Positions 1 through 17,544 of a DNA stretch of 24,000 nucleotides are shown piece by piece. The position numbers and the translations under genes were made by a program. This DNA is from Streptomyces hesseae (GTDB lineage: Bacteria; Actinomycetota; Actinomycetes; Streptomycetales; Streptomycetaceae), in the NCBI RefSeq assembly GCF_031845785.1, contig NZ_JAVRFI010000002.1:276388-300387 (forward strand), read 5' to 3'. Numbering within the stretch: the stretch's first letter is position 1; every line of letters begins with the position of its first letter. The notes beneath the pieces are model-generated. The model searched no databases and was not told where the DNA came from. It was given only the letters and a program-made list of their open reading frames with translations.

Positions 1-1796
1 GATACTTCACGGTCCGGCTCGCGGACTTCCCGAGCGCGTACGGCACGTCCTGTCTCACGCGCGTCGAGGAGGCGGTGAAGCCACTGCGCGCCGACGGCCT
101 CACCGTCGAGTACGGAAGTCCGCTCGGAGAGCTGGCGCGTCCCCCGGGAAACGACCGGTTGTCGGAGCTGATCGGTCTCGTGACCGCGGTGGCCGTGCTG
201 ATCCTGGGCTTCGGCAGTATCGCGGCGGCCGCGATACCTCTCGTCACCTCGATGCTGGCACTGCTCGTCGGGCTCAGCTCGCTCGGCCTGCTCGCCAACG
301 CGTTCACCTTCGCCACACCGTCCCCGACGGTGGCCACCATGATGGGCCTCGGTGCCGGGCTGGACTACACGCTCTTCCTGACCACACGCCACCGCCGAGT
401 GCTGCGTGGGACCAGTGACCCGGTCGAAGCCGCCGGGGCCGCGATGGCCACCGGCGGACATGCCGTACTGATCGCCGTCGCGGCCGTGATCCTGGCGCTG
501 ACCGGTCTGTGCCTCTCCGGCACCGGCTTCATCGCCACGCTCGCGGTCGCTGCCGGAATCACCGTACTGGTGGCCGCCGCTGCCTCGCTCACCCTCGCCC
601 CGGCCCTGTTCGGGCTGCTCGGCCGGAACATCGACCGTTTCCGCCTCGGCCGTCCCGTCGACGAGGCCACCGGCACTGCGGACCTCTGGTACCGATGGTC
701 CCGCGCCCTCGGCCGGCACCCGTGCCGTTTCCTCGCCATCGGTGTCCTCGCGGTGGGGACGCTGAGCATCCCGCTCGCGTCCGTGCGCCTGGGTCACATC
801 GACGCCGGTTCCACACCCGGCCGTTACACCGACAGACGCGCCTACGAGCTCATCGCGAAGAACTTCGGTCCCGGCGCCAACGGCCCGCTGACCGTCGTCG
901 TCGAACTCCGCCCCGCCCGGACCGGCGCGGAACCGAGTCCGTCTGCCGACTCCCTCTCCGCAGCCCTGATACGGACCCCGGGTGTCGCGGCGGTCAGCAC
1001 GCCGGCGCCCACCGCCGACCGCACCCTCCTCATCGCGACCGTCACTCCGGAGCACGGCCCCCAGGACCGCAGAACCGCCGACCTGCTCCACCGCCTCGAC
1101 CGCACCGTCCTGCCCAAAGCCCTCGCAGGCACCGGAGCACGCGGTTACATCACCGGCCTCACCGCCGCCCGGCTCACCTTCGCCGACGTGCTGCTCGGGA
1201 ACCTGCCCACGATCATCGCCTTCGTGACCGGCACGGCCTTCCTCCTGCTCCTCGTCACCTTCCGCGGTCTGCTCGTCGCGGCGAAAGCCGCCCTCCTCAA
1301 CCTGTTCTCCATCGGCGCGGCCCTCGGAGTGGTCGTCGCCGTCTTCCAGGAGGGCTGGGGCGGCTCCCTCGTCGGCATCACCGAGCCCGTCCCCATCGAG
1401 CCCTACGTACCGGTCCTGGTGCTCACCATCGTCTTCGGACTGTCCATGGACTACGAGATCTTCCTGATCGTCCGCATCCGTGAAACCTGGCTTCGCACCG
1501 GGGACAACCACGAGAGCGTCGCCACCGGCCTCGCGGCCACCGCTCGCGTCATCACGAGCGCCGCGGTAATCATGACCAGTGTCTTCCTCGCCTTCCTGCT
1601 CAGCACCGACGTCGTCATCAAAATGATCGCCCTGGGCCTGGGCGCCAGCGTGATCATCGACGCCACGCTCATGCGCCTGCTCCTCGTGCCGGCCACCATG
1701 CACCTGCTCGGGAACGCCAACTGGTGGCTCCCGGACCTCCTACGGAGGAGAAGCGGTCTTGGGGACCGTCGGTACAACCGTCGGCGCCGAGATTGA
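1..1796 (+). CDS. MMPL-family (RND superfamily) membrane transporter; 5' end lies outside the window
   Basis: The frame is open from nt 3 with no stop before the listed ORF 75..1796, so the gene is cut by the window edge. Two multi-helix hydrophobic blocks are separated by a ~180-aa soluble loop. Paired motifs GLGAGLDYTLFL and GLSMDYEIFLIVRIRE are typical of MMPL/RND membrane domains. Strong GC3 bias. Confidence 0.85.
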   Translation, partial: YFTVRLADFPSAYGTSCLTRVEEAVKPLRADGLTVEYGSPLGELARPPGNDRLSELIGLVTAVAVLILGFGSIAAAAIPLVTSMLALLVGLSSLGLLANAFTFATPSPTVATMMGLGAGLDYTLFLTTRHRRVLRGTSDPVEAAGAAMATGGHAVLIAVAAVILALTGLCLSGTGFIATLAVAAGITVLVAAAASLTLAPALFGLLGRNIDRFRLGRPVDEATGTADLWYRWSRALGRHPCRFLAIGVLAVGTLSIPLASVRLGHIDAGSTPGRYTDRRAYELIAKNFGPGANGPLTVVVELRPARTGAEPSPSADSLSAALIRTPGVAAVSTPAPTADRTLLIATVTPEHGPQDRRTADLLHRLDRTVLPKALAGTGARGYITGLTAARLTFADVLLGNLPTIIAFVTGTAFLLLLVTFRGLLVAAKAALLNLFSIGAALGVVVAVFQEGWGGSLVGITEPVPIEPYVPVLVLTIVFGLSMDYEIFLIVRIRETWLRTGDNHESVATGLAATARVITSAAVIMTSVFLAFLLSTDVVIKMIALGLGASVIIDATLMRLLLVPATMHLLGNANWWLPDLLRRRSGLGDRRYNRRRRD

Positions 1797-1816
1797 TCAC
1801 GGTCGGCGGCATTGCC

Positions 1817-1841
1817 CGGCAGGGTGCGTCCGGACCTGCCG
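1817..1841 (+). terminator. Weak terminator-like GC hairpin after the MMPL gene
   Basis: CGGCAGG (1817-1823) pairs with CCTGCCG (1835-1841): a 7-bp stem with an 11-nt loop, starting 21 nt after the stop at 1796. No U-tract. Confidence 0.3.
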
Positions 1842-1877
1842 ACCAGCCTCGGCGTAGAGACCCTCTCACCACTTTCA

Positions 1878-1937
1878 GGTGATTGCCGCCGATTGTCGTG
1901 ATGGGGTGATTTTCCGCCGCTACGGTGATCGGGTCAT
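1878..1937 (+). promoter_or_regulatory. Imperfect ~27-bp tandem direct repeat (GGTGAT-bounded) upstream of the decarboxylase operon; candidate operator
   Basis: GGTGATTGCCGCCGATTGTCGTGATGG (1878-1904) is followed directly by GGTGATTTTCCGCCGCTACGGTGATCG (1905-1931) and a third partial unit GGTCAT. GTGAT/GTCAT pentamers start at 1879, 1898, 1906, 1925 and 1933 (spacing 19, 8, 19, 8). The repeat sits 25-90 nt upstream of the start at 1962/1968. Confidence 0.35.
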
Positions 1938-1961
1938 CGGGGTCCGGGGGGCAGGGGTGGG

Positions 1962-3389
1962 GTGGGTATGGAGCTGGGGTACTGGCTCGGGCGGGGAGCC
2001 GAGGCTTTCCGGGAATGGGCGCGAACGTACGACGAGTTCGCGGCGCATACCGCGATGGCGGTCGACGAAGCGGCCTGTGAGGTGGCATTCGAGGAGCTGA
2101 CCGCCCGGCTGCGCGGCAGTTACCCCTTCTTCCACCCCTGCTACGCGGGGCAGATACTCAAGCCGCCGCACCCGGTGGCGGTCGCCGGCTATGCGGCCGC
2201 CATGCTGGTCAACTCCAACAACCACGCGCTGGACGGCGGTCCGGCGACCTCCGCCATGGAGGAGGAGGTGGTGGAGCAGCTCGCGCAGATGGCCGGTTTC
2301 GCGGCCCACCTCGGGCACCTGACCAGCAGCGGCACCCAGGCCAACCTCGAAGCCTTGTTCGTCGCCCGTGAGGCCCGTCCCGGCACGGGGGTCGCCGTCA
2401 GCGCCGAGGCGCACTACACCCACGCCCGGATGTGCCATCTGCTGGGCGTCCCCGTGTACACGGTGCCGGTGGACGATCGTGGGCGCATGGACATGGCCGG
2501 GCTGGAGCGGCTGCTGTCCACCGGGGTCGCCGGCACGGTCGTCGCCACCACGGGCACGACGGCGCTGGGTGCCGTCGATCCACTGCACCGCATCGTCCCG
2601 CTGGCGCGCCGGTACGGGGTGCGCGTCCATGCCGACGCCGCTTATGGCGGCTTCTTCCGGCTACTGGCCGACGGAAGAACCGACAAGGAGCAGGCGCCCG
2701 TCGCGCCGGAGACCGGGGACGCCCTGCGGGCGATCGCGCAGTGCGATTCGGTGGTGATCGATCCGCACAAGCACGGTCTGCAGCCGTACGGTTGTGGAGC
2801 GGTGTTGTTCGGGGACCCGGACGTCGCCCGGTTCTTCCGGCATGACTCGCCCTACACCTACTTCACCTCCCGCAGACCTCATCTGGGGGAGATCAGCCTC
2901 GAATGCTCCCGCTCCGGCGCGGCCGCCGCCGCTCTGTGGCTGACGCTGAAGCTGCTGCCGCTCACCCCTGACGGGCTCGGGGCGGTGCTCGCCGCCGGGC
3001 GACGGGCCGCCGTCCGCTGGGCCGGGCTGATCGGCGCCTCTCCGTACCTGGATCCGTACCAGCCTCCCGAGCTCGACATCGTGACGTACTACCCGGCCGC
3101 TCCGGGGAGTTCGCCACCTCGCCTGTCCCATGTCGGCAGGGCGAGCGATGAGGTGCTGCACCGGGGGATGAACGCCAAGGAGGACCCCGTCTTCCTCAGC
3201 GTCGCCCGTGTCACCGCCGGCGCGTTCACCGCCCGCCACGCCGACGCCGTCGCGGACAGCGACAACACCCACGTATTGCGCAGCGTGCTGATGAAACCGG
3301 AGAGCGAGCTGTATCTCGACCGCCTCCACCAGCGGGTGGAGCAGCTGGCCAAGGCATCGTGGCCCGCTCCTCGGAGGTGCGGCCGATGA
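1962..3389 (+). CDS. Group II pyridoxal-phosphate-dependent decarboxylase (MfnA / tyrosine-decarboxylase-like)
   Basis: Motifs present: HPCYAGQILKPPHP, NSNNHALDGGPATSAMEEEV, HLTSSGTQANLEAL, TGTTALGAVDP, HADAAYGG. The Schiff-base lysine motif is VIDPHKHGLQPYGCG (Lys codon 2769-2771). Start is GTG 1962 or ATG 1968. The stop overlaps the next start (ATGA at 3386-3389). Confidence 0.85.
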   Translation: MGMELGYWLGRGAEAFREWARTYDEFAAHTAMAVDEAACEVAFEELTARLRGSYPFFHPCYAGQILKPPHPVAVAGYAAAMLVNSNNHALDGGPATSAMEEEVVEQLAQMAGFAAHLGHLTSSGTQANLEALFVAREARPGTGVAVSAEAHYTHARMCHLLGVPVYTVPVDDRGRMDMAGLERLLSTGVAGTVVATTGTTALGAVDPLHRIVPLARRYGVRVHADAAYGGFFRLLADGRTDKEQAPVAPETGDALRAIAQCDSVVIDPHKHGLQPYGCGAVLFGDPDVARFFRHDSPYTYFTSRRPHLGEISLECSRSGAAAAALWLTLKLLPLTPDGLGAVLAAGRRAAVRWAGLIGASPYLDPYQPPELDIVTYYPAAPGSSPPRLSHVGRASDEVLHRGMNAKEDPVFLSVARVTAGAFTARHADAVADSDNTHVLRSVLMKPESELYLDRLHQRVEQLAKASWPAPRRCGR

Positions 3390-4213
3390 ACAGCGAGACG
3401 CCGCCGACGCCTCTGACCCTGGCCACCGACTCGCGCGTCCCCGTGCGGGCGGCGGCCGTTGCCACGACCGCCGATTACGACCGCTACTTCCACATCGCGC
3501 GTCAAGCGCCGGACCTGACGTCCTGGACATACGACATGCTCCGGCTCCAGACAGCCGTCCTCGCCGACCTTCCGCACACCGGTCTGGACGACTCCCAGCG
3601 TGCCGCCGTCCTGACCGGTCTGTTGCACGCCTCCCACGCCACGCTGGCCGCGTGGCTGCGGTCCACGCCGGGATCCGTACCGGACGGGCCCGCCGACGGC
3701 CCGTACGGCGCACTGCGCCGCTGGAAACTCGGCCATCAGCTCTTCCATCTCCTGCTGACCACCATGAACAGCGCCCTCGACGACATCTTGGCCGCAGTGG
3801 GCGCGGCACGGTGGGCGTCCGTCCGCCACGGCCTGGAGCGGTTGCGGACGCTGTACGACGCGGCCACCGCCGCCATGGCCTACGCCTCGGACTTCCCCGC
3901 CTCCGTCTACGCGAACGACGTACGGCCCACGATGGAGCCGCCGTTCGCCGCACCGGGCTTCTCCGGAACGCTCAATCAGGAGCACCACGTCATGACCGAA
4001 CGGACGCGCGCCCTCAGGACCGCGCTCGGAAACCTGTCGGCGCCGACGCCCCTCCTCGCCGTGATCCGTCACGAGGAGACCCTGCTGCGGGCGGCACAGC
4101 GACGGAACCGGAAGGCGCACGCGGCGATCTGCGAGCGCTGCGTGCCGGACGGCGCCTCGCTCCTGTCGCGGCACACCACCCGGCAGAGGAGCGACCGTGC
4201 GACATGTGAGTGA
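3386..4213 (+). CDS. Hypothetical protein with no confidently recognised family; tentative resemblance to the tryptophan 2,3-dioxygenase / haem-dependent aromatic oxygenase superfamily
   Basis: ATG 3386 overlaps the upstream stop (ATGA). GC3-biased 275-aa ORF, largely helical in composition. Motifs occur in TDO order: GHQLFHLLL (His117), SVYANDVRPTMEPPFAAPGFSG (Tyr175, Arg180), RRNRKAHAAICERCVPDGAS (His245). The family assignment comes from recalled motifs only. Confidence 0.7.
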   Translation: MNSETPPTPLTLATDSRVPVRAAAVATTADYDRYFHIARQAPDLTSWTYDMLRLQTAVLADLPHTGLDDSQRAAVLTGLLHASHATLAAWLRSTPGSVPDGPADGPYGALRRWKLGHQLFHLLLTTMNSALDDILAAVGAARWASVRHGLERLRTLYDAATAAMAYASDFPASVYANDVRPTMEPPFAAPGFSGTLNQEHHVMTERTRALRTALGNLSAPTPLLAVIRHEETLLRAAQRRNRKAHAAICERCVPDGASLLSRHTTRQRSDRATCE

Positions 4214-7001
4214 GTGGACGATCCCTGCGTCACGGGCCGTGGGGGACGTCGAGGGCATCGACGCACGGACCGGCCTGCGGCTGCTGGCCGGCCTGGTCGA
4301 CGAGGTCGTGTGGCTCGACCACTGCCCCGCCGTGAGCGCCTCGTTCCAGCCGGCGCCCGCCTGGCTCCACCACGAACCGGTCTCCGCCTGGGAGCCCTTG
4401 CCGGAACCCCCGCCCGGCCAGCAGCCGTGCCCGCCCGACCCACGCCGTGTCTGTGTGTCCTTCGCTCCCGAGCACGGGGACAACGCCCGCACCTGGGCCC
4501 GTACGCACGGCTACCGGCTGCTGGCCCCGGACGCCGGTGTCACGGCGTGGGCCGCCGACAAGATCAGCGCCACCCGGCTGTTCGCCGAGGCCGGGGTCCC
4601 CGTCCCGCCCTTCCTGGTGATCCCCGCGTCAGGCCGCGAGCCGGCGGAGGCGTACTGGAGCGGCCGGTGGGAGCGGGCCGTCGCCCAGCGGGCGGAGAAC
4701 AACCTCATCGGCCGCGGGACCGTCCTCGTCGACGGGCCGCCGGGCCTGCGGGCCTGCCTGGACTCCTGGCGGGGCGAACCCGTCAAGCTCAGCCGCTTCG
4801 CTCCCGGGATCTCCCTGACCGTCACCGCGTGCGCCGGGCCGGACCGGACCGTCGTCTCGGCGGTCTCCCACCAGCTCGTCGGGCTGCCCGAGCTGGCCGC
4901 CTCCTGGGGCGCGCACTGCGGCAACCAGCTCGTCGGCCCGGACGACCTGCCCGAGGGGCTGTACGGGCAGGCCCGAGCGGCCGCGTACCAGGTGGGCGAG
5001 GTCCTGCGGGGACGTGGTTTCCGCGGTGTCTTCGGCCTGGACCTGGTGGAGGAGGACGGCCGGCTGCTGGCCGTGGAGGTCAATCCACGCTTCCAGACGG
5101 TGGTGTCCCTGGTCCAGGCCGCCGAGGGCGCGGCGGGCCTTCTGCCGTCCCTGGGCCTGCACGTCCTGTCCTTCCTCCTTCCCGCCCTGCCCCCTCCGGC
5201 GGCCGGACCGCTGCCGCCCGGCCCGCGCCACAGTCAGCTCGTGGTGCATGCCCGTACGGACGCCGTGGTGCGCCGCCCGCCCCCGACGGGGCGCTACCGC
5301 AGGGACGGGCGCGCGGTGACGGGACCGCTTCCCGGGCCGCCCGTGGTGTCCCGGCTGGCCGACGACGAGGTCCTGTGGTGGGCCGTCGCCCGTTCCGGTC
5401 CGGTCATCGCGGGCGAGGAGCTGGCGCTCGTCCAGTTCCCGCGGCCGGTCGCGGGGCTGCGGCCCCGTCCGCGACTGCGGCCCGGCGCCTCGGCCTGGCT
5501 TGCGGCCCTCGCCCCGGACACGGGGCAGGAGGGATCGCACACCGAGGACGAGCCTCCCCCACTGCGGCTGGACGAACGGCGGATGCGCGAGGCGGGCCGC
5601 CACGCCGTCGAACTCGTCATCGACCGGATGACCACCCCCGGCTCCCGGCCGCCCTGCCACGTCCCCTCACCCGGCGCTCTCAGGGCCGCCCTCGACGAGC
5701 CCCTCCCCGAGCACGGTACCCACGACCTGCCCGGCCTCCTCGACCACGTCACCGAGCGCGCACTCGCCGAGGCGACCCGGCTGGACCACCCGCGCTGCTT
5801 CGCCTTCGTGCCCTCCACCGGCAACTTCCCCGCCGTGCTCGCCGACGCGCTGGCCTCCGCGTACCTCTCCGTCCCCGGCGCCTGGCTCGTCGGAGCGGGC
5901 CCCACCCAGATCGAACTGACCACCCTGCGCTGGCTGAAGACGTTCCTGGGCCTCCCGGACGGCCACGGCGGCCTGTTCGTCAGCGGCGGGTCCGTGGCCA
6001 ACCTGACCTGTCTGGCCGTCGCCCGCGACCACCGCCTCGACGGCCGGCCGCAGCCGCACGCCCGGCTGTACTGCTCCTCCCAGGCTCACCCTTCCGTCGC
6101 ACAGGCGGCGCACCTCCTGGGCCTCACCCGCGAACAGCTCGCCGTCCTGCCTCCGGACGACGACCTGCGCCTGGACGCCGACGTCCTGGCCGAGCGCGTC
6201 GGCCGTGACCGCCGCGCGGGACTGCGCCCCTTCGCCGTCGTCGCCACGCTCGGCACGACCGGCACCGGGGCCGTCGACCCGCTCGGCCGTCTGGCCGATC
6301 TGTGCCAGGAGGAAGGCCTGTGGCTGCATGTCGACGGCGCCCATGGCGCGGCCGTCGCCGGCGCCCCACGCGGTCACCATCTGCGGGACGCCCTCGGCCG
6401 GGCCGACTCCCTCACCGTCGATCCGCACAAATGGCTGTTCCAGCCCTATGAGATCGGCTGTGTCCTGCTACGGCGCCCCGAACTGCTTTCCGAGACCTTC
6501 GGTGTGGCGCGCCACGCCTTGGACCAGGGGTATCTCCGAGCGGCCCATCCGGCCGCCCCGGCATGCGAGGAGGTCAACCTCTCCGACTACGGCCCGCAGC
6601 AGAGCCGCGGTCTGCGCGCCCTGAAGCTCTGGCTCTCCCTGAAGACCTTCGGCGCCGGAGCCTTCCGTCAGGCCATCGAGCGGGGAGCGGACCTCGCCGA
6701 GTACGCCGCCGGACTCGTCGAGGCCCACCCCGAGCTTGAGCTGGTCACGCCGCCCGGTCTCGCCATCCTCACCTTCCGCTACCGGCCCCGGGACGCGCCC
6801 GCGACATGGGACGCCGACGCGGCGCAGGCACACATCAGCCGGAGGGTGTGCGCCGACGGCGGAGCCGTCCTCCTCACCACCACGGTCCGGGGAGCCACCG
6901 TGCTCCGCATGTGCACCATCAACCCCACCAGCACCCGTGCCGACGCCGCGTACGTGCTGGACCTGGTCACCCGCTACGGCCGCGACGACATCGGCCCCTG
7001 A
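4197..7001 (+). CDS. Fusion protein: N-terminal ATP-grasp carboxylate-amine ligase domain plus C-terminal group II PLP-dependent decarboxylase domain
   Basis: GTG 4197 (or GTG 4206) lies inside the last 17 nt of the upstream gene, whose stop is at 4211-4213. ATP-grasp signatures fall around aa 115-300 (AADKISATRLFAEAGVPVPPF, GVFGLDLVEEDGRLLAVEVNPRFQ). A Pro/Arg-rich linker covers ~aa 416-458. Decarboxylase signatures: FVSGGSVANLTCLAVAR, ATLGTTGTGAVDP, HVDGAHGA, TVDPHKWLFQPYEIGC (Lys745, codon 6429-6431). One uninterrupted 934-aa frame. Confidence 0.85.
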   Translation: MRHVSEWTIPASRAVGDVEGIDARTGLRLLAGLVDEVVWLDHCPAVSASFQPAPAWLHHEPVSAWEPLPEPPPGQQPCPPDPRRVCVSFAPEHGDNARTWARTHGYRLLAPDAGVTAWAADKISATRLFAEAGVPVPPFLVIPASGREPAEAYWSGRWERAVAQRAENNLIGRGTVLVDGPPGLRACLDSWRGEPVKLSRFAPGISLTVTACAGPDRTVVSAVSHQLVGLPELAASWGAHCGNQLVGPDDLPEGLYGQARAAAYQVGEVLRGRGFRGVFGLDLVEEDGRLLAVEVNPRFQTVVSLVQAAEGAAGLLPSLGLHVLSFLLPALPPPAAGPLPPGPRHSQLVVHARTDAVVRRPPPTGRYRRDGRAVTGPLPGPPVVSRLADDEVLWWAVARSGPVIAGEELALVQFPRPVAGLRPRPRLRPGASAWLAALAPDTGQEGSHTEDEPPPLRLDERRMREAGRHAVELVIDRMTTPGSRPPCHVPSPGALRAALDEPLPEHGTHDLPGLLDHVTERALAEATRLDHPRCFAFVPSTGNFPAVLADALASAYLSVPGAWLVGAGPTQIELTTLRWLKTFLGLPDGHGGLFVSGGSVANLTCLAVARDHRLDGRPQPHARLYCSSQAHPSVAQAAHLLGLTREQLAVLPPDDDLRLDADVLAERVGRDRRAGLRPFAVVATLGTTGTGAVDPLGRLADLCQEEGLWLHVDGAHGAAVAGAPRGHHLRDALGRADSLTVDPHKWLFQPYEIGCVLLRRPELLSETFGVARHALDQGYLRAAHPAAPACEEVNLSDYGPQQSRGLRALKLWLSLKTFGAGAFRQAIERGADLAEYAAGLVEAHPELELVTPPGLAILTFRYRPRDAPATWDADAAQAHISRRVCADGGAVLLTTTVRGATVLRMCTINPTSTRADAAYVLDLVTRYGRDDIGP

Positions 7002-7013
7002 GTGGCCGCCCGG

Positions 7014-7556
7014 TCAGACGATCACCAGCTCCGACGGCCCGGTGATCAGCTCCACCCCGTCCTTCGACGCGCACTTCAGCGGATCGAGCGCGACCTGAAG
7101 CCCCGGCGAGGCCACCGTCCGCCCCTTGAACTTCCCCTCCACCACCCGGCCCACGATCAGTACGACCGCCTGCCCGGCCACCTGCTGTACGTTCCCCAAG
7201 TGGTACACGACCGTCGTCCGCTCCCCGGTGTTCCAGGTGATCCGCTCGGCGGTGGTCGCCTCGGAGAAGAAGCAGCCGTTCCACCCGCCGCCGCTGATCG
7301 AGGACTCCCCCGACCGCAGCGCCGGGTCCGTGGAAAGACATCTGTACGCACCGCTGCCGCCGATCCGGGTCCGTTGCGCCGCCAGCGACAGACCGGGTGA
7401 GAACGTGATGGTGTTGTTCCCCGCGCAGCTCACGGCAGCACGCGATGCGTGTGCCGAAGGGTGTGCCGAAGCGTCGGGCGCCGCGTTCACCAGCGCGGCC
7501 AGCGACGCCGCCACCACACACCCGAGCCTCCTGCCCCATGACAACCGTCCGCCCAT
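7014..7556 (-). CDS. Secreted four-cysteine protein of unknown function (paralogue of 11589..12194)
   Basis: I chose the internal ATG at 7556 of listed ORF 7014..8036. The longer form would overlap the MFS gene and is Arg/Pro-rich. GGGAGGGG lies ~11 nt upstream. Signal peptide MGGRLSWGRRLGCVVAASLAALVNAAPDASA. The mature part is beta-rich with 4 Cys (SCAG, RCLSTD, GCFF, KCAS). Confidence 0.7.
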   Translation of the reverse strand: MGGRLSWGRRLGCVVAASLAALVNAAPDASAHPSAHASRAAVSCAGNNTITFSPGLSLAAQRTRIGGSGAYRCLSTDPALRSGESSISGGGWNGCFFSEATTAERITWNTGERTTVVYHLGNVQQVAGQAVVLIVGRVVEGKFKGRTVASPGLQVALDPLKCASKDGVELITGPSELVIV

Positions 7557-7618
7557 GTCTGCCCAACCCCTCCCGTAAAGCCACCGCGTACCGACGGCGG
7601 CATCCTTTCGTTCCATCC

Positions 7619-9091
7619 TCAAACCTGTCCGGCGCACGACCGTTGTCTCCTCCGTTCGTGTCGCCGACCGGTAAGCGTGAAAGCCATGGCAGCGGTGAGC
7701 AAACCCAGTAGGCAAAGAGCCGGTTGGGTACCCAGCGGCGTGCCGAGCGCGTCGCAGATCGATGCCCCGCAGCCGCGGGGAGGATGCCCAACCAGGGTGA
7801 GTGCGGCTCCTGCCACCGCCGGCCCCGTCGCGCCACCGAGCATGGCGAACGTTGTCGCCGTCGCCGCCGCTTGCGCGGTGCGGTGTGACGCGTGGTCGCG
7901 GCTGACGACGGTCATGGCAGAGCCGTTGGTCAGGCCCAGGCCGCATCCCACGAAGGCGCATGCGCCGCTGAGCAACCACAGGGGCGTGGGGTGCCGATGT
8001 CCACAGCCGCTGAGGAGCACACCGGCCGCGACGCACAGAAGCCCGGTACGCATGAGGCGTGAGCCGTCACACTGTTCACCGGTCCGCCGGGCGGCCAGGC
8101 GCGCGGTGAGAACGGCGGGGACCACGGCCGGCAGGGCGACGACCGCCGCCGAGAGCGGGCTCAGACCGTTTGCGCGGGTGAGAGTGAAGTAAGTGAGGAA
8201 CGTGAAGGCGGAGTTCGCGCCGAAGAGCGCCAGCAGGACGAGCAGCGCTCGGCGCGTGACGGCCTGCCGCAGCAACCCGGCGTCCAAAGTGCCCTGAGGG
8301 TCACGTCGCGTTCGGAGGGTGAGAAGACCGATCAGTGTGACGGTCAGCAGCGCGGTCGCCGCCTGTGCCGGTGCGGAAGCGGTGACCGCCGGAGCGGTCA
8401 GCGTGATCAGCGCGGTGATGGCGGCCGCGGTGCACAAGGTGATTCCGGCGATGTCCATGGGCTGCCGAGGCGACGTCGCCGAGGGTCCGGGTTCGCCGAG
8501 TGCGTGAAGGGCGCAGCCCGCACTGGCGGTCGCGAGAAGAGTGAGGGCGCCGAAGGCCGCCCGCCAGTCCACCAGGCTGGTGAGCAGACCGCCCAGTACC
8601 GGCCCGAGGCAGGAGGCCGCGGCGGCGGTGGAGACCCACCCCGCAACGGCATGCGGCTCGTTTCCCGTTCTCCGGCGCAGGGTGAGCAGAAGGGCGAGGC
8701 TGACGGGCGAGAGAGCGGCACCGCCGATGCCCTGGAGCAGTCGAGCGGCGATGAGGACGGCGGCGGTGGTGGCCGCGGTGGCCAGCAGGCTCGCGGCGGC
8801 GAAGGTGGACAGGGCGACGAGCAGGATACGGCGCGCACCGTACTGGTCGGCGAAGTGGCTCACCCCGAGTTGCAGAGGGCCACAGGTGAGTTGATATGCG
8901 GCGGCGAACCACTGGGTCTGGACGGGCTCCATCTCCAGGTCGGCCGCGACCGCGGGCACGGCCGCCGTGACCGAGGCGATGGCGAGCGCCCCGCAGAGCA
9001 GCGCCGCATAGCAGGCGATGGGGGCGAGGCGCGGTACGCGGCCGGGCGTCGCTGTCCAGGCCCGGCGGTCGTCCGGCAGTCCGGGGCTCAC
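7619..9091 (-). CDS. MFS transporter, drug:H+ antiporter type (about 14 TMS, DHA2-like)
   Basis: Hydrophobic throughout. MFS motif A-like FADQYGARRILLVAL and antiporter motif C-like LGPVLGGLL are present. The preferred start GTG 9091 overlaps the upstream stop as GTGA (9088-9091). The listed ATG 9121 is an alternative. Confidence 0.85.
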   Translation of the reverse strand: MSPGLPDDRRAWTATPGRVPRLAPIACYAALLCGALAIASVTAAVPAVAADLEMEPVQTQWFAAAYQLTCGPLQLGVSHFADQYGARRILLVALSTFAAASLLATAATTAAVLIAARLLQGIGGAALSPVSLALLLTLRRRTGNEPHAVAGWVSTAAAASCLGPVLGGLLTSLVDWRAAFGALTLLATASAGCALHALGEPGPSATSPRQPMDIAGITLCTAAAITALITLTAPAVTASAPAQAATALLTVTLIGLLTLRTRRDPQGTLDAGLLRQAVTRRALLVLLALFGANSAFTFLTYFTLTRANGLSPLSAAVVALPAVVPAVLTARLAARRTGEQCDGSRLMRTGLLCVAAGVLLSGCGHRHPTPLWLLSGACAFVGCGLGLTNGSAMTVVSRDHASHRTAQAAATATTFAMLGGATGPAVAGAALTLVGHPPRGCGASICDALGTPLGTQPALCLLGLLTAAMAFTLTGRRHERRRQRSCAGQV

Positions 9092-10503
9092 AGGTAGTGC
9101 CCGTCCGGTCCTACGATGCATGGCTGCCGCCAGGCCGCGGACCGAACGGTGACCATGGGGAACGTGATGCCGGGTGCTCGAGCGTCCGGTGTGCCACGGG
9201 CGGGGGTCAGGTGCACATGATGGCCTGTCCTGAGGGCCTCGAACAGCCTTCTGGGGGCGGTGGTCGCCGTGACCAGTAGTGGCACATCAGGGGCTGCCGC
9301 GCCGCTCCGGATGCGCGTGCCGCGCCGCGCGGCGTTCCCCGGCAGGCCGGCCAGGCGCGCGGCAAGACGTCGTCGCGGGAGGGGTGGGCTAAGGGCGGTG
9401 AGGACGGTGGCGCGCAGTGCGTGGCCCCAGGGCGAGGGCAGCGCGTTGAAGTGGAGCATGGCGGCGGTGAGCCGCATGACGTGGGCGGCGGAGCGACGTC
9501 GTTCCTCGGCGTAGGCGTCCAGCAGTACCCCGTGGTGAGGCTCGGTGACCGCTGCCGCGAGGCGCCACCCCAGGCTCATGGCGTCGGCCAGGCCGGTGTT
9601 GAGGCCCTGGCCGCCGGTGGGTGGGTGGACGTGGGCGGCGTCGCCCGCCAGTACGACGCGGTGACGCCGGTACCGGGCGGCGTGGCGGTGCTCGCAGCGA
9701 TAGCGGCTGAGCCACTCGATCTCGCGCAGCGCGAGCTCGCGGCCCGTGATCCGGCACAGCAGCTCCTGCACCCAGGCCGCGTCGCGGGCGTCGTTCTGTG
9801 TGTCGTAGGCCTCAAGGCGACGGTAGGGGTAGAGGACGACGCGCCAGCGTCCGTCGCCGAACGGCAGGAGCAGCACCATGCCGTCCGGCCCCCAGTGGCT
9901 CCACGGCTGTTGCGGCTCGAAGTCGAGCCGCGCGTCGACCGAGATGACGTCATAGGGGTGCACGGTGCGTGACGCGGCTATGCCCGACAGCCGGCGCACG
10001 GTACTCCGGGCGCCGTCGCACCCGGCGATGTAGGCAGCGCATATCCGCCGCACACGCCCCGAACTCCGGACGGTCAGCTCGGCACTTCCCTCGTGCTGCC
10101 GCATTCCGACGACTTCCGTCCCGCGCGCGATGAGTGCGCCGTTCTTGAGGGCGTACTCCTCCAACAGCGCTGTGGTCCGGTGCTGGGGCAGAGCGAGCGC
10201 ATACGGAAAGGAACTGTCCAGCGCGGAGAAAGGCGCGATTGACCTGTCAGAACCCAGGGGATAGTGCCAGTAGCGATGACCGTGGGCGACAAATGGCTCG
10301 GCGATTCCGCGCATGTCGAAAAATTCCAGGGTCCGGGAATGCAGCACAAGCGCACGTGTCGCTTGCGGCGGCCGGACATCCCGTTCGAGCACGACGCAGC
10401 CGATACCCCGAAGGCCCAGTTCCCCGGCCAACTGCAGACCGACGGGCCCGCCTCCGACCACGGCGACCTGAACCTCATCGGGCAAGGCCGCGACGTCGGT
10501 CAT
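9088..10503 (-). CDS. FAD-dependent aromatic-ring monooxygenase (class A flavoprotein hydroxylase, PheA/TfdB-like)
   Basis: Motifs: VAVVGGGPVGLQLAGELGLRGIGCVVLER (GxGxxG), GCDGARSTVRR, VLAGDAAHVHPPTGGQGLNTGLADAMSLGWRLA. ATG at 10503 with GAAGGA ~10 nt upstream. Confidence 0.9.
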   Translation of the reverse strand: MTDVAALPDEVQVAVVGGGPVGLQLAGELGLRGIGCVVLERDVRPPQATRALVLHSRTLEFFDMRGIAEPFVAHGHRYWHYPLGSDRSIAPFSALDSSFPYALALPQHRTTALLEEYALKNGALIARGTEVVGMRQHEGSAELTVRSSGRVRRICAAYIAGCDGARSTVRRLSGIAASRTVHPYDVISVDARLDFEPQQPWSHWGPDGMVLLLPFGDGRWRVVLYPYRRLEAYDTQNDARDAAWVQELLCRITGRELALREIEWLSRYRCEHRHAARYRRHRVVLAGDAAHVHPPTGGQGLNTGLADAMSLGWRLAAAVTEPHHGVLLDAYAEERRRSAAHVMRLTAAMLHFNALPSPWGHALRATVLTALSPPLPRRRLAARLAGLPGNAARRGTRIRSGAAAPDVPLLVTATTAPRRLFEALRTGHHVHLTPARGTPDARAPGITFPMVTVRSAAWRQPCIVGPDGHYL

Positions 10504-10709
10504 ACGGTGAATTCCTTCGTCCGTCCTCCCGTTGACCGGTCCAGGCTGACACCCTGCACCGTACGTGTCCAGACCGGCTTGGCCCGCCCGGCGAGATCAC
10601 GGCCCATAGGATTTTCATAATTACATGTGGCCCGTTGACCATCCGAGTGGCTCCTGCCAAGGTGACCGCGGCACGTTCGCGCACTCCTCGTCCAGCCGAA
10701 CGGAGAACG
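10504..10709. promoter_or_regulatory. Divergent intergenic control region between the monooxygenase and uricase-fold operons
   Basis: A 206-bp gap between divergent starts. CCGTTGACC occurs twice (10529-10537 and 10632-10640), and TTGACC resembles a -35 hexamer. The only AT-rich patch nearby is ATAGGATTTTCATAATTACATGT (10606-10628). No confident -10 element was identified. Confidence 0.4.
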
Positions 10710-11561
10710 ATGGGCCATTCCATCGGCGATCACGCGTACGGCGAATGCGGAATCGAATTCCTCCTCGTGGACCGGTCCGGGCCGCAGCAGCGGGTACGCC
10801 GGTTCCGGGCGGACGTCCGCCTGCTGATGGACCACCCCGAGGTCTACCGGGACGGTGACAACACCCGCCTGGTCCCGGTGAGTTCGATCAGCAACTCCGT
10901 ACTGGCCCTCGGTGCCCGGCACACGGCGTCGGAGCCCGAAACCTATGCGCTCGCGCTTGCCGAGCGCTTCCTCACCGCGACCACGCGCGTCCGGAGCGCC
11001 GATGTGCGCCTGACCGCCTCCGGGTTCACCCCGCTCCCGTCCGACCGGCCGGCGTCCGTGGCCCAGCACTTCTCCGCACTCCCCCGCCACCAGGATCACG
11101 CTCACCTCACGCTCCCGCGCCATGGCGAACCCGTCCTCCGCAGCGGCCTGTTGAACATGGAACTCTTCGCGACCGGCGGCGCGACGTTCACGGGCTTCGC
11201 CCGCGACGCCTACACCACCACGCAGACCTTCACCGACCGGGTCTTCGGTGCCCGGTTCAACGTGACCTGGCGGCACTCCGGAACGGACACCGATCACGGC
11301 CAGAGCCGTGCCCGCGCCGAACAGGCCGTCGTCGAGGCCTTCAGCGAGCACACCAGCCGCTCCAGTCAGCACACCTTCCACCACCTGGGCGCCGCCGTGC
11401 TGGACGCCTGCCCCGAAGTCGCGGAGGTCCGAGTGGAGGGGACCCACCTGACCCGCGGCCTGGTGGACCTGACCCCCTTCGGAGTCGGCAACGAAGGCTG
11501 CGTCTACACAGCGGCGGACCACCAGCAGAGCACCGTCACCGTCGACATTCACCGCATCTGA
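10710..11561 (+). CDS. Uricase-fold (T-fold, urate-oxidase-like) protein with non-canonical active-site residues
   Basis: Internal ATG 10710 of listed ORF 10635..11561, with GGAG 4 nt upstream. Collinear with uricases as I recall them: YGECGIEF vs YGKxxVR, GDNTRLVPVSSISNSV vs xDNSxxVATDSIKNT, GFARDAYTTTQTFTDRV vs GFLRDEYTTLxETxDRI, VDLTPFG...VYTAADH vs the C-terminal block. Confidence 0.75.
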   Translation: MGHSIGDHAYGECGIEFLLVDRSGPQQRVRRFRADVRLLMDHPEVYRDGDNTRLVPVSSISNSVLALGARHTASEPETYALALAERFLTATTRVRSADVRLTASGFTPLPSDRPASVAQHFSALPRHQDHAHLTLPRHGEPVLRSGLLNMELFATGGATFTGFARDAYTTTQTFTDRVFGARFNVTWRHSGTDTDHGQSRARAEQAVVEAFSEHTSRSSQHTFHHLGAAVLDACPEVAEVRVEGTHLTRGLVDLTPFGVGNEGCVYTAADHQQSTVTVDIHRI

Positions 11562-11588
11562 GAACGAGGGACCGAGGAAGGGGACCGC

Positions 11589-12194
11589 GTGAACACCACA
11601 GGATCGCGCAAAGCCCGCAGGCTCGCCGTGACGGTCACCGTCATGGCGGCGGCGCTCACGCCCACAACGCAGACGGCACATGCCGACGACCAGCCGGCCG
11701 GCTCTCTCCTGGTGTGCGCCGGCACCGTCGCCGCCTCCTACGCGCCGGGGCTGACCTTCGCGCCGAGAGCCACCTCCGTCACGTCCCGGGCGGTCGTCGG
11801 ATGCCCTCTCTCGACGGACGGCAGGTTCGCCTCCGCGACCTTCGGCGGAGACTCCGCCGGCATCTTGTCCTGCCTCCTGGGGCCCGCGAGCGGCACCCTT
11901 ACGTTCCACTGGGGCGACAACAAGGGAAGGGGGAAAGCATCCCCCCACCACCACGGCAGCCCCGGCGGCCCCGGCGACACGACGTCGACCGCCTCGATCC
12001 ATAGCCTGGCAGCCGTACGCCCGAACGGAAACATCGTCACCGTGAGCACGGGAACCATCACCGACGGCGCCTTCAAGGGGGCGGCAGTCGTCACCGAGGT
12101 GACCCTGCTCGCTTCCCGGCAAGCCGCCTGCCTGACCCCCCGGGGCCTCGCCTCCGCCTCCGGCCCCACCACCGTGACCATTACCCGGGTCTGA
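11589..12194 (+). CDS. Secreted four-cysteine protein of unknown function (paralogue of 7014..7556)
   Basis: GTG 11589 is preceded by GAGGAAGGGG. Signal peptide MNTTGSRKARRLAVTVTVMAAALTPTTQTAHA. It aligns with the 7014..7556 product (VCAG/SCAG, YAPGLT/FSPGLS, GCPLSTD/RCLSTD, G-FKG, ACLTPRG/KCASKDG, GPT/GPS). It carries an extra Gly/His-rich insert, NKGRGKASPHHHGSPGGPGD. Confidence 0.75.
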   Translation: MNTTGSRKARRLAVTVTVMAAALTPTTQTAHADDQPAGSLLVCAGTVAASYAPGLTFAPRATSVTSRAVVGCPLSTDGRFASATFGGDSAGILSCLLGPASGTLTFHWGDNKGRGKASPHHHGSPGGPGDTTSTASIHSLAAVRPNGNIVTVSTGTITDGAFKGAAVVTEVTLLASRQAACLTPRGLASASGPTTVTITRV

Positions 12195-12480
12195 GAAGAC
12201 GTCCGTCCTCGGTTTCGTCCCGGCCCACAACGCCACCACCAGGCATCATCCAGCGCAGAACGAGGCCGCCGGCCGTGGATTCGCTGCTACGTGGAACGCA
12301 GCCCCGCGTGGCGCCGAAGCCTGCGCAGTCTTCTTGCCGGGCCCGTGCGGAGTCCGCGCACCCTGTCTGGTCCGATTTTCGCGTCGGGCCAGGGCGGCAT
12401 CGTCAGCGAGTACGGCCACGGGGCACTGGTCAGCGTGATGGTGGCCGCGGGCTGACCCGGGTGGTGCCGCCCCCGTCCGT

Positions 12481-13275
12481 TCAGAACGCGGAGTTCGCGG
12501 ACCAGCGCGTCAGCAGGTCCGCGTCCCCGTCCACCCGGAGGGCGTCCCAGTCGTGGCCGAGGCGCCCGTACAGGAACAGCAGCAGGTCCGCGGCGGTTCC
12601 CTGGACGGACACGTCGGCGGCCGTGCGCGTGGCTTCCGAGTGCGGGCCCACCTCCACGGTGAAGCCGTCGGGGCCGAGACGGACGAGCCAGTCGCCGTCG
12701 CTGTCGGCGCACCGGAAGCGCAGGGTCTCTCCGGCACCGCGCAGCTCGGCCACCTTGGGGGCGAAGAACGCGGCGAAGGGCAGGTTGACGAGGAACTCGT
12801 CGACGCCGTCGGTGGCCAGGTCGGGGTCGATCACCGGGCGGAGGCCGAGGGCGCGTTCCGCGTCGGTGCGGTGGACCAGGGTCTCGAACAGCATCCGGCG
12901 GATCCAGAACCTGGCGTGCTGGTCGGCTCCCCAGGCCCACATCGGGGCGTCCGGGTCGAGCTCGGCGAAGACGCTCGCGGCCTCGGCGGCGCTGTCCGCC
13001 AGCCAGTCCGGGTAACCGTCCTCGCTCGCCGGGAGCCGCAGTTCCACCTCGCGGGTACGCGGCGGCTCCTGAACGCGTCGGCGCAGGAGCACGGAGAACC
13101 AGCGCTGCACGCTGCCGGTGTGCTTGACAAGGTCGGCGAGCGTCCAGCCCGGGCAGCCGGGCACCGGGGTGGCGAGGTCGGCGTCCTTGACCGCCGCGAC
13201 GAACGCGGCGGTCTCGGCGGCGACGGCCTCGCGGTGGACGGCGGGGGCGGACGCCCGGCCCGATCGGTTCGACAT
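12481..13275 (-). CDS. Maleylpyruvate-isomerase-family mycothiol-dependent enzyme (DinB-like N-terminal domain, TIGR03083 type)
   Basis: Typical family layout: PVPGCPGWTLADLVKHTGSVQRWF, FWIRRMLFETLVHRTDAE, DGVDEFL, and the C-terminal LLLFLYGRL...DGDADLLTRW. I preferred the internal ATG 13275 (MSNRSG...). The listed ATG 13350 is possible. Confidence 0.8.
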   Translation of the reverse strand: MSNRSGRASAPAVHREAVAAETAAFVAAVKDADLATPVPGCPGWTLADLVKHTGSVQRWFSVLLRRRVQEPPRTREVELRLPASEDGYPDWLADSAAEAASVFAELDPDAPMWAWGADQHARFWIRRMLFETLVHRTDAERALGLRPVIDPDLATDGVDEFLVNLPFAAFFAPKVAELRGAGETLRFRCADSDGDWLVRLGPDGFTVEVGPHSEATRTAADVSVQGTAADLLLFLYGRLGHDWDALRVDGDADLLTRWSANSAF

Positions 13276-13808
13276 GTGTGTTTCGCCGCGCTTCCTGCTG
13301 CTCCGGCCCGGCAGCCTTACCCGCGGGGCATCTCGGGGGCAGCCTGCCACAGCGGCTCCGCCGGCTCATGGGCGGGCCGGTCGGCGGGGGGCTGAGCCAT
13401 GCCTCGGCTCGGATCCGGCTCACGGAGGGAACGGGGTCCGACACCGCCGCATGGGGCACCTGCTGGACGGCTCGAAGCCGACGTACCACCCTCGCGCCGT
13501 TGGCCCGTATGGCGGAGCGCGTAAGCGCCCCAAGCATTGGAGCCTCCCTTGCGCGCCGGCATCCTCGCCCCACGGCAGGGCTAGCCGCTGGCCTGGTCGT
13601 ACCGCACCGCAAACACCGTCGACGGCAACTGCTGCCGGGCGGGAAGCGGCCCGGGAGCCTTTCTTCCGCTTGCGCACCCCGTCCCCAAGGGGGGGCGAGT
13701 TCCGGCCGGAGAGGGTGAATCGCGTGATGTGGGTGCCGCGCTTGTCCCATGCTGCCCAACACCCCGTTGGATCCAGCCCCGGCCCCTTGGAAGAACTGGA
13801 GTTCGCCG

Positions 13809-16015: not shown

Positions 16016-17090
16016 CCCGGGACCTCGGCTCTCTCCGTGTCCCTTCACGGTTTCACGCCGCCGGCTTCGGGTGCGCAGGTGGCGCTGCCCGTGCCGACCG
16101 GGACGTACCCGGTCAGGAACGTCTCCCTCCGCCTCGCCGTCCGAGGCCGCCCCGACCCGTGGGGGACTCTTCCCACACGATCCAGACCCGGACCTCCCTC
16201 CGGCAGCGTGGGATCAAGGCCGTCATCCCCCGAGTCTTCCGACGGGACGCTGCTGTTGGAGCGCTACCCCGCCTTACTGATCGCCCGTGGGCCGGAAGCC
16301 GGCCAACCGGTCCCGGACTGACATCCTGCCCGAGCCGGACCTGTTCCTCCTCCACGTTCGAGTACCACGGCCCCGCCCCCTCCTACACCCCCGCGGCCAC
16401 CATCTCCGAGCCGGCCCGGCCACTGCCCGACGCAGGCTGGAAACACGCCCTCGACGGGTGCTGCATCACGTGGAAGGCTCCCGTCGCCCTTGCCGCCGGC
16501 GTACAGGTCGACGCCTTCGCCCCCAGCGGACCAATGGTCCTCTTCCCACCTGGGCGATCTGGGCAGCCACGCGGTCCACCAGCCGGGCTGGGCCCTCCGT
16601 CTGTCCACGAGCGCCCTGGCAGCCCTCCTACAAGACTCCACCTTCGAACTGGCTCATGGGCAAGGGCGCCGACCGCCCGCACCGCCGACGCGCTCAGCCG
16701 CACTGCCCCCGCCTGCTCCGGACAGCCGCAGGGCACACACCCGCTGGCGAACCCGAACAGAATCCGGCCGTACGGATCAAGAGGTCCTGTCATGCGCGTT
16801 GTGGCCAAGTCGGCGTCTCGAGCCTGCCGCGGCAGGCTCGCTGGATCTCCTACAGCCGGGTGACCGCCGACGAATGGGGCTCTTCATCCGGTCGGCAACG
16901 ACGACATCGACCGCGCCGTGGCGTTCCCGAACAACATCACATCTCCCCCGCCGGGCCGGATCAGATGCATGGCCAAATACCGCCTTGGTGGCAGGTTGGC
17001 CGGTTTCAAAACCGTGATGTTGCCGGGGAGTTAACACGGAGACATGATCACTGTTCGTATCAGCCTGATCACTCATCCAGGAGCCGAGAA

Positions 17091-17303: not shown

Positions 17304-17320
17304 CGCCGGGCCGCCCGGCG
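17304..17320 (+). terminator. Tight GC hairpin directly after the small ORF stop
   Basis: CGCCGGG (17304-17310) pairs with CCCGGCG (17314-17320): 7-bp stem, 3-nt loop. Confidence 0.35.
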
Positions 17321-17544
17321 GCCACCGCGGCCATGATCGGCGACGAGCGCGCCGCCACCGCCATCTCCCGTATTTCCGTGTCTCCTTCCGCATCGCGGCG
17401 GCGGCCTTCCTGCCGTCGACACAGCGACGCAGGGCAGCGCGACCAAGGCCCTGAACGGAAGATCGCCGCAAACCCCCTCCATTGCGTCGCGCTCTCGCAT
17501 GCCCTCGTTTCACGAGATTCACCACAAGGGAGTTGTTCATTCTC

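Follow-up and report, generated by a model that had tools for sequence, protein, structure and literature searches.

The 24,000-nucleotide stretch of the Streptomyces hesseae genome analyzed here (contig NZ_JAVRFI010000002.1, positions 276,388 to 300,387 of the forward strand; hereafter the window) encodes a 934-residue polypeptide in which an ATP-grasp ligase module is joined to a group II pyridoxal 5'-phosphate (PLP)-dependent decarboxylase. The fusion is real, and both modules retain their catalytic residues. Fused genes of this kind appear to be kept by selection in one clade of Streptoverticillium-type Streptomyces and in one Crossiella, and in the window the gene is the last of a predicted operon that also carries a second decarboxylase gene, deC2, and a gene for an SfmD-type heme hydroxylase. 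We see an even chance that the protein performs two consecutive steps of a tyrosine-derived amide pathway. The elements of the operon and of the fused gene are the following, in window coordinates.

1962..3389, + strand: deC2, second PLP decarboxylase, 474-475 aa, first gene of the predicted operon (Pyridoxal_deC, 79.8 bits)
3386..4213, + strand: predicted SfmD-type heme-dependent aromatic (tyrosine) 3-hydroxylase, 275 aa (PF27188, SfmD_perox)
4197..7001, + strand: fused gene, ATP-grasp ligase module, linker and group II PLP decarboxylase module, 934 aa
4197..5507, + strand: ATP-grasp module, aa 1-437, with N-domain, ATP-grasp core and C-terminal beta-rich domain
5076..5096, + strand: EVNPRFQ motif (ExNxR), aa 294-300, position verified
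5508..5561, + strand: variable interdomain linker, aa 438-455
5562..7001, + strand: group II PLP decarboxylase module, aa 456-934, complete, N-terminal helices included
6429..6431, + strand: codon of Lys745 (DPHK), the PLP Schiff-base lysine, position verified

The fused gene is one continuous coding frame

The open reading frame (ORF) at 4197..7001 starts with a GTG codon that has AGGAG 5 nt on its 5' side and runs through 934 residues with zero internal stops, as a first-pass annotation made from the sequence had read it. The window consists of high-G+C actinomycete DNA (62-76%), and the length of the ORF alone is weak evidence in DNA of ~75% G+C, since shadow ORFs, one of 664 aa (4214-6208, +) and one of 343 aa, lie across it. 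The G+C content at third codon positions (GC3) is 0.81-0.98 in all 300-nt segments of the fused ORF, with values of 0.89-0.90 at the junction, and two Pfam domains, ATP-grasp_3 at aa 119-301 and Pyridoxal_deC at aa 492-863, share this one frame. The 4197-7001 frame is the coding frame from end to end. A protein database search returned a 100% identical Streptomyces hesseae protein, and an independent Logan assembly of run SRR7783809 gives exactly the same 934-aa product, which effectively excludes a sequencing artefact.

An ATP-grasp module with an intact active site

The N-terminal half belongs to the ATP-grasp_3 family (PF02655; 30.8 bits against a cut-off of 23.2), which is also the precomputed family of most orthologues, and it aligns end to end with stand-alone proteins of 420-480 aa. 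An AlphaFold2 model built with 68 homologues has a predicted local distance difference test (pLDDT) score of 92.6 and a predicted template modelling (pTM) score of 0.92. The model forms a single compact unit that takes in both the N-terminal domain and the beta-rich C-terminal part, which the first-pass annotation had already described as lying beyond the ATP-grasp core. A Foldseek search with this model revealed a three-domain ATP-grasp fold, with 596 PDB matches at E <= 1e-3, and the best 50 of the 596 are all ATP-grasp enzymes (PurK, biotin carboxylase, PurD, PurT, RizA and BL00235). E-values range from 1e-12 to 6e-16 against PurK, biotin carboxylase, PurD/PurT and L-amino-acid ligases. All of these fold neighbors lie at template modelling (TM) scores of ~0.5-0.58 and 11-16% identity, so the fold matches cannot separate carboxylases from ligases.

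Conservation across the 68 homologues is consistent with a working Mg-ATP and acyl-phosphate site, as D282 is invariant and D121, K122, E294, N296 and R298 are at least 90% conserved. We take ExNxR to be a Mg-ATP/acyl-phosphate motif, a role given to EVNPRFQ by analogy with general knowledge of ATP-grasp enzymes and not by structure superposition. In profile searches of the PDB, the best match of the family is the gamma-glutamyl ligase BesA (8yi6, 1.4e-6, 43 residues covered), followed by PurK and D-Ala-D-Ala ligase. The only NCBIfam match of this half is the PRK06524 'biotin carboxylase' model (NF005096), at 66.6 bits against a cut-off of 684, and no MfnD- or PylC-type NCBIfam model matched it at E <= 0.01. 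An exhaustive search of 1.8 billion representatives returned 1,153 relatives of the ATP-grasp half, nearly all of them stand-alone proteins of 420-470 aa; the decarboxylase fusion occurs in only one representative. Two remote relatives, P0095 (893 aa) and P0128 (801 aa), carry the ATP-grasp domain behind a fold-type II PLP enzyme (Pfam PALP), joined to its C-terminus, which suggests that this ATP-grasp branch was fused to PLP enzymes more than once and in differing orders.

A complete group II decarboxylase behind a variable linker

The C-terminal module belongs to Pyridoxal_deC (PF00282; 181.5 bits against a cut-off of 27) and covers model positions 1-375 of 375. Its closest solved relative is the tryptophan decarboxylase of R. 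gnavus (4obu, 4.7e-80, 272.7 bits over aa 529-930; identity ~40%, estimated by eye over the aligned region), followed by the DesA-like decarboxylase 5o5c and DOPA (3,4-dihydroxyphenylalanine) decarboxylase 7xin. Four catalytic residues align with 4obu, 5o5c and 7xin, namely the PLP lysine K745, the pyridine-nitrogen aspartate D713 (HVDGAHG), the stacking histidine H631 (SSQAH) and the catalytic-loop tyrosine Y779 (QGYLR); pig DOPA decarboxylase served for the reference numbering. Tyr798 (SDYG) was considered as the catalytic-loop tyrosine and ruled out, as it aligns with a Trp further along in 7xin and Y779 is the equivalent residue.

Scores against characterized decarboxylases are highest for tryptophan (273 bits), lysine (209) and DOPA (205) decarboxylases and are 104-130 bits for acidic-amino-acid decarboxylases. 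The module reaches the cut-off of zero NCBIfam equivalogs; it scores 198.2 bits against 900 for L-2,4-diaminobutyrate decarboxylase (NF052646), 141.6 against 606.1 for the aspartate 1-decarboxylase PanP (TIGR03799) and 76.3 against 299.4 for MfnA (TIGR03812), for which deC2 scores 125.6. The first-pass annotation had described a full ATP-grasp enzyme and a full group II decarboxylase in one polypeptide, and the Pfam domains, the fold model and the catalytic residues bear it out. The positions that it gave for DK (aa 121-122), EVNPRFQ, Lys745 and the linker string are exact, and this 40-aa string (aa 416-455, nt 5442-5561) covers the conserved C-terminal end of the ATP-grasp module as well as the linker.

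One clade shares the fusion, which arose from overlapping genes

When 5.8 billion proteins were searched, 40 clusters with this domain pair appeared, 920-989 aa long and at 68-94% identity; the lowest value is 68% over the whole protein and 64% for the ATP-grasp half. Almost every cluster is from Streptoverticillium-type Streptomyces (roseoverticillatus, cinnamoneus, abikoensis, mobaraensis, albireticuli, olivoreticuli and others), and one lies outside the genus, on the Crossiella sp. CA-258035 chromosome, which is complete. Scanning a single genome from each species with the ATP-grasp-half alignment as query yielded 50 loci, in 24 of which the two modules form one frame without a stop; 22 have two genes, and in 4 the pair is absent or meets a contig end. 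The fused state is thus present in 24 scanned genomes, in Crossiella and in the window itself. Split genes occur in other Streptomyces, in Nocardia and in Paraburkholderia, and in 48 loci the ATP-grasp and decarboxylase genes lie side by side in the same order.

Most split loci have a 4-nt stop/start overlap (of GTGA/ATGA type) at the position of the linker, and the Nocardia loci overlap by 7 nt, so that an indel upstream of the stop suffices to fuse the frames. In S. bohaiensis, a 522-aa ATP-grasp protein that is 50% identical to aa 12-437 overlaps by 4 nt a 509-aa decarboxylase to which aa 456-929 are 63% identical, and the break between the two proteins consequently falls exactly in the linker. 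In neighbor-joining trees of the two halves, which are simple trees without support values, every fused gene falls in a single clade with Crossiella branching first and the split forms outside. The agreement of the two trees argues for a single fusion event, old on the time scale of the clade and preserved since. It would have originated through an indel that took out the stop codon of an ATP-grasp ligase gene that was overlapped by, and translationally coupled to, the group II decarboxylase gene following it. The first-pass annotation had offered a recent fusion by stop-codon loss as an alternative; the overlaps of the split relatives agree with loss of a stop, whereas recency does not hold, as the fusion is common to the whole clade, its halves are 64-94% identical to the window protein and many linker indels have left the frame intact.

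Between their conserved blocks, the fused orthologues have 33-201 nt of sequence, in every case a multiple of 3 and acidic or low in complexity, which presents the picture of a linker that is apparently tolerated but selected. The only fused-clade member with its halves out of frame is Streptomyces sp. CA-181903 (locus L018, 11300-11404), in which the frameshift sits in a linker G-run, GGCGGGGGAGGGGG, and the NCBI annotation gives a 480-aa ATP-grasp protein. A secondary fission and a homopolymer sequencing error are the two possible causes. Repetitive inserts occupy the junction in some relatives (L026, 11338-11540; L010; L049, 11329-11653), with acidic DEDR-type repeats in the L026 linker and VSPVGVSVAGVSSAE-type repeats in the N-terminal tail of the split L049 decarboxylase. 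Two loci, L032 (Embleya sp. AB8, 9926-11302) and L034, hold an ATP-grasp orthologue of 52-54% identity without a partner decarboxylase, and the Embleya L032 gene adjoins adenylation enzymes, a WS/DGAT-like protein and a nonribosomal peptide synthetase (NRPS) module.

The first-pass annotation knew of no description of this architecture and would have abandoned its novelty had it proved common and functionally annotated. It is common within one clade and deposited, and public databases give it generic names only ('pyridoxal-dependent decarboxylase', 'ATP-grasp domain-containing protein'). A full-text literature search for the fusion, the cassette or their function found no paper on any of them, and the related matches concerned only methylofuran/MfnD, the E-64 pathway, closthioamide and carnosine/GADL1.

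A predicted operon with a second decarboxylase and an SfmD-like hydroxylase

The genes for deC2, the SfmD-like protein and the fused protein follow one another with overlaps of 4 nt and 17 nt, respectively, an arrangement that points to a translationally coupled operon. The kin of deC2 are bacterial tyrosine decarboxylase and MfnA, as judged from NCBIfam models of MfnA type and of enterococcal tyrosine decarboxylase, all matched below cut-off, and from the PDB matches to bacterial tyrosine decarboxylases 5hsi/7cwx and to 6ebn. Its orthologues (58-92% identity) stand beside the ATP-grasp/decarboxylase pair in 30 loci, Paraburkholderia included.

The 275-aa protein encoded at 3386-4213 combines a family match, an SfmD-like fold and the HxnHxxxC motif. 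PF27188 (SfmD_perox) is precomputed for it and for 57 relatives; the Pfam library scan of the window did not report this family, and a null result there does not equal 'no Pfam family'. Its sequence matches are SfmD (6vdp, 1.1e-8) and the heme-dependent L-tyrosine hydroxylases 7kqr/8r2s, and its AlphaFold2 model (pLDDT 81.7) matches the SfmD fold first and then MarE/TDO/IDO. Residues H200, H245 and C249 are invariant in its family and constitute the HxnHxxxC motif, which binds the thioether-linked heme of SfmD and in SfmD-like proteins has a histidine spacing of n = 37-40 (PMC8179489).

Neighborhoods were counted with tblastn in 10-kb flanks of the 48 loci with the ATP-grasp/decarboxylase pair, on contigs some of which are short. 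A second aromatic decarboxylase lies within 10 kb of the pair in 40/48 loci, an SfmD-like gene in 34/48, and a second decarboxylase together with a hydroxylase in 32/48. Ten loci have a canonical aromatic L-amino-acid decarboxylase in place of deC2, with 345 bits to plant tyrosine decarboxylase and 317 bits to DOPA decarboxylase. L040 and L052 are without an SfmD-like gene and carry a 4-hydroxyphenylacetate 3-hydroxylase of HpaB type directly 3' of the pair; L046 and L048, which have an SfmD-like gene, carry distant HpaB-like genes (27% identity) 4-6 kb upstream. Judging from these neighbors, the deC2 and SfmD-like partners appear to be replaced elsewhere by non-orthologous enzymes of the same predicted function. 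A 167-177 aa ORF upstream of the Crossiella fused gene was considered as a counterpart of the SfmD-like protein and rejected as unrelated to it.

In the beta-proteobacterium Paraburkholderia humisilvae (L053) the genes for the ATP-grasp enzyme, the decarboxylase, the SfmD-like protein and deC2 form one operon in that order. Just upstream and divergent from these four genes is a catalase-peroxidase-type gene (7026-9209, -; Pfam peroxidase, 251 bits), which may be a coincidence or may be tied to the peroxide chemistry of the SfmD-like enzyme. In three Nocardia loci (L041, L045 and L047, ~12900-17500) the split pair is directly followed on its 3' side by genes for glutamine-synthetase-like, Peptidase_C26 (PuuD-like), aldehyde dehydrogenase and short-chain dehydrogenase/reductase (SDR) proteins. 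The glutamine-synthetase-like gene has a weak match (185 bits) to the gamma-glutamylputrescine synthetase model, and these downstream genes resemble, by their family assignments, a Puu-type gamma-glutamyl amine pathway.

A proposed tyrosine-derived amide pathway

The two fused activities are very likely functionally coupled, as their genes neighbor each other in a constant order in 48 loci and are fused across the Streptoverticillium-type clade, in Crossiella and in the window, and the operon context of an SfmD-like hydroxylase and a second decarboxylase points to the chemistry. We infer the start of the pathway from tyrosine, the identities of the substrates, the order of the steps and the channelling of intermediates. 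The SfmD-like enzyme would 3-hydroxylate tyrosine to DOPA, and the stand-alone decarboxylase would convert DOPA to dopamine, or would form tyramine where the hydroxylase is missing. The ATP-grasp module would then activate a carboxylate as an acyl phosphate and couple it to the arylethylamine, the carboxylate most simply being the side-chain carboxylate of Glu or Asp in an MfnD-like manner. Finally, the fused decarboxylase would strip the remaining alpha-carboxylate of the conjugate to give an omega-aminoacyl-arylethylamine, such as 4-aminobutanoyl- or beta-alanyl-dopamine, without an NRPS. The reverse order, with decarboxylation of Glu or Asp ahead of ligation of the omega-amino acid, would give the same product. 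Ligation of Glu or Asp followed by decarboxylation was chosen because it gives each of the four enzymes a step of its own.

Because group II decarboxylases form obligate dimers, the fusion would put two consecutive active sites in one dimeric particle. The fused decarboxylase would require a free alpha-amino acid. For the ATP-grasp superfamily, the general acyl-phosphate mechanism requires a carboxylate and a nucleophile (PMC8141765).

Several observations weigh against this pathway. The substrates of all four enzymes are predicted, and the tryptophan, lysine and DOPA decarboxylases to which the fused module is closest are not enzymes known to act on gamma-glutamyl or aspartyl conjugates, the acidic-amino-acid decarboxylases being further away. 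On the ligase side, the match to BesA spans just 43 residues, and the closest folds are PurK and biotin carboxylase, ahead of amino-acid ligases, though all lie in the same narrow range of TM scores. The pair has no second decarboxylase within 10 kb in some loci (Crossiella L002, S. orinoci L025, L040, L048 and L052), where amine formation may fall to the fused or adjacent decarboxylase. The hydroxylase, in turn, is missing from five fused-clade loci, four of them fused and the fifth the frameshifted L018.

A further reading, which we regard as doubtful, takes the four activities as a compact, horizontally mobile and NRPS-independent cassette for a catecholamine conjugate not yet described from bacteria, with the last two steps channelled in the Streptoverticillium-clade fusion. 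The candidate products would be beta-alanyl- or 4-aminobutanoyl-dopamine. Beta-alanyl-dopamine is a metabolite of insect cuticle tanning and is made there by a quite different enzyme.

Alternative explanations

A tentative alternative, which we take seriously while still thinking it improbable, is an MfnA/MfnD-like order. Here the arylethylamine (tyramine, dopamine or tryptamine) would come from the fused decarboxylase itself, the ATP-grasp module would N-acylate it at once, for example with the gamma-carboxylate of glutamate, and the stand-alone second decarboxylase would have a separate or redundant role. The similarity of the fused module to aromatic decarboxylases (4obu, 4.7e-80; 7xin), the loci in which the pair has no other decarboxylase nearby and the HpaB hydroxylase directly after the pair in L040 and L052 all agree with such an order, for which the pairing of a PF00282 decarboxylase with an ATP-grasp tyramine:glutamate ligase provides a precedent (PMC8141765). 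It has to contend with the 40/48 loci in which the extra decarboxylase is clearly of tyrosine/DOPA type, as two enzymes for one step would be redundant in a four-gene cassette; the replacement of the stand-alone decarboxylase by a non-orthologous enzyme of the same predicted function suggests instead that this enzyme is the amine-forming one. A catabolic or protective role of the cassette in place of a biosynthetic one, with excess aromatic amino acids or amines being conjugated for degradation or detoxification much as in Puu-type gamma-glutamylation, is unlikely in our view. The Puu-like neighbors on the 3' side of the pair would suit it, as would the HpaB gene and aldehyde dehydrogenase 3' of the pair in L040 and an ATP-grasp family that is widespread in actinomycetes without typical secondary-metabolite neighbors. 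Those Puu-like genes, however, are limited to three closely related Nocardia loci, degradation has no need of DOPA or dopamine made from tyrosine by a dedicated heme hydroxylase, and the patchy, horizontally spread distribution that reaches Crossiella and Paraburkholderia is more typical of accessory biosynthesis.

We think it very unlikely that the ATP-grasp module acts, in the manner of PurK and biotin carboxylase, as a carboxylase that would use bicarbonate and ATP to N-carboxylate the amine from the decarboxylase(s) to a carbamate, or to a urea with two amines. PurK and biotin-carboxylase domains do head the fold matches (E 6e-16 to 1e-13), but at TM ~0.55 and 11-16% identity and in a list that includes the L-amino-acid ligase RizA (5e-13); PRK06524 'biotin carboxylase' is the sole NCBIfam match, yet its 66.6 bits are far under the cut-off, and the best sequence-profile match is a gamma-glutamyl ligase. 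The two decarboxylases would give two amines and leave the carboxylate not obvious, which would favor a carboxylase. As for the motifs, EVNPR presumably resembles that of carbamoyl-phosphate synthetase and biotin carboxylase, while the position that we take to hold the catalytic Glu296 of biotin carboxylase is a conserved Val here (V302, aligned by motif only), which counts against one. A more unusual variant of the cassette reading would have the ATP-grasp module join two decarboxylase-derived amines via bicarbonate into a urea; formation of a urea by an ATP-grasp enzyme is, to our knowledge, without precedent, and this too counts against the carboxylase. It is extremely improbable that the fusion comes from sequencing or assembly errors in a linker rich in G+C, or that it is an accident of this strain without function. 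The linker is indeed G+C-rich and L018 is out of frame in its G-run, but the fused frame recurs with differing linker lengths in 24 independent species genomes and on the complete Crossiella chromosome, an independent assembly gives the identical protein, the codon-position G+C pattern is continuous and the catalytic residues of both halves are intact.

Other genes of the window

Downstream of the predicted operon, the window holds the following features.

7014..7637, - strand: convergent predicted secreted protein, 207 aa (gene call in L054; no Pfam family)
10635-11561, + strand: uricase-like protein, likely a real gene
11589-12194, + strand: ORF without assignment, likely a real gene
12481-13350, - strand: mycothiol-dependent maleylpyruvate-isomerase-like protein, likely a real gene
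17482-18801, + strand: microbial transglutaminase gene (Pfam Transglut_prok, 852 bits)

The stop of the 7014-7637 gene (-) lies 12 nt from that of the fused gene. This gene is kept at the site in nearly all fused-clade (Streptoverticillium-type) genomes and not elsewhere, and the 207-aa protein is probably a clade-specific neighbor outside the pathway. The genes for a major facilitator superfamily (MFS) transporter (7619-9121, -) and a flavin adenine dinucleotide (FAD) monooxygenase (9088-10503, -) were considered as cluster members and rejected, as orthologues occur in only L005 and L008 of the 50 scanned loci, both close relatives; the two genes are also present on Logan contig L054, which is from the window's own strain. 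Two long ORFs, 10500-12239 (-) and 12287-13867 (-), of 579 and 526 aa, match no family, show a GC3 of 0.65-0.67 as in non-coding sequence and are probably shadows of genes on the other strand or frame. The transglutaminase gene sits where the G+C content of the window is lowest (0.62-0.65 against ~0.70 elsewhere) and fits a Streptoverticillium-type origin of the window. Rfam revealed no RNA family in the window, and a promoter and terminator scan of 1500-7800 gave nothing above chance.

Significance and comparison with known systems

By 'Rosetta stone' logic the fusion links its two enzymes, and together with the hydroxylase and the second decarboxylase it defines a small testable pathway. The ATP-grasp family concerned has more than 1,000 uncharacterized members. 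With four activities in ~5 kb that can be expressed as one piece, the pathway is directly testable. If the proposal is true, it would provide a new NRPS-independent route from tyrosine to amide natural products and a second physiological context for the rare SfmD-type hydroxylases with thioether-linked heme, and S. bohaiensis (split) and S. hesseae (fused) would form a natural pair for the catalytic contribution of the fusion.

Individual features of the proposed pathway have parallels in known enzymes. The C-terminal module has the PLP lysine, stacking histidine, aspartate and loop tyrosine in common with 4obu and the aromatic L-amino-acid decarboxylases, which in contrast to it are stand-alone enzymes of moderate identity. 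The ATP-grasp enzymes BtrJ of butirosin biosynthesis and BesA of beta-ethynylserine biosynthesis (BesA, PDB 8yi6) join the gamma-carboxylate of glutamate to an amine, and in the butirosin pathway the PLP decarboxylase BtrK turns the gamma-glutamyl unit into a 4-aminobutyryl unit. BtrK is a fold-III decarboxylase whose substrate is bound to a carrier protein. BtrJ and BtrK thus share the logic of gamma-glutamylation followed by decarboxylation, whereas BtrJ, BtrK and BesA, unlike the 934-aa protein, are all unfused. A single chain that first ligates and then decarboxylates is known in CoaBC (Dfp), which ligates an amino acid to a carboxylate and then decarboxylates it to the amide of a biogenic amine. 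CoaBC shares this logic with the proposed reading and differs in its CTP-dependent ligase and flavin-dependent decarboxylase, in unrelated folds and cofactors, in the reversed order of its domains and in the pathway that it serves.

We take ATP-grasp_3 to be the family of PylC- and MfnD-type enzymes as well. In methanofuran biosynthesis, the PLP-dependent L-tyrosine decarboxylase MfnA and the ATP-grasp tyramine:L-glutamate ligase MfnD form gamma-glutamyltyramine via an acyl phosphate (PMC8141765). The pairing of a PF00282 decarboxylase with an ATP-grasp enzyme is common to both systems. MfnA and MfnD, however, are separate proteins of archaea and methylotrophs, whereas the system described here has a decarboxylase-ligase fusion, two decarboxylases and an aromatic hydroxylase, and neither of its decarboxylases reaches the MfnA cut-off (76 and 126 bits against 299), so that they are not members of those families. 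The protein at 3386-4213, for its part, shares with SfmD and the heme-dependent L-tyrosine hydroxylases the SfmD_perox family, the best sequence and fold match and the invariant HxnHxxxC motif, and differs in an identity of 23-25% and in a histidine spacing of 44 against 37-40 in SfmD-like proteins (PMC8179489). SfmD is the 3-methyl-L-tyrosine 3-hydroxylase of saframycin biosynthesis, whereas its counterpart in S. hesseae is found without methyltransferase or NRPS partners and is accompanied instead by decarboxylases and an ATP-grasp ligase.

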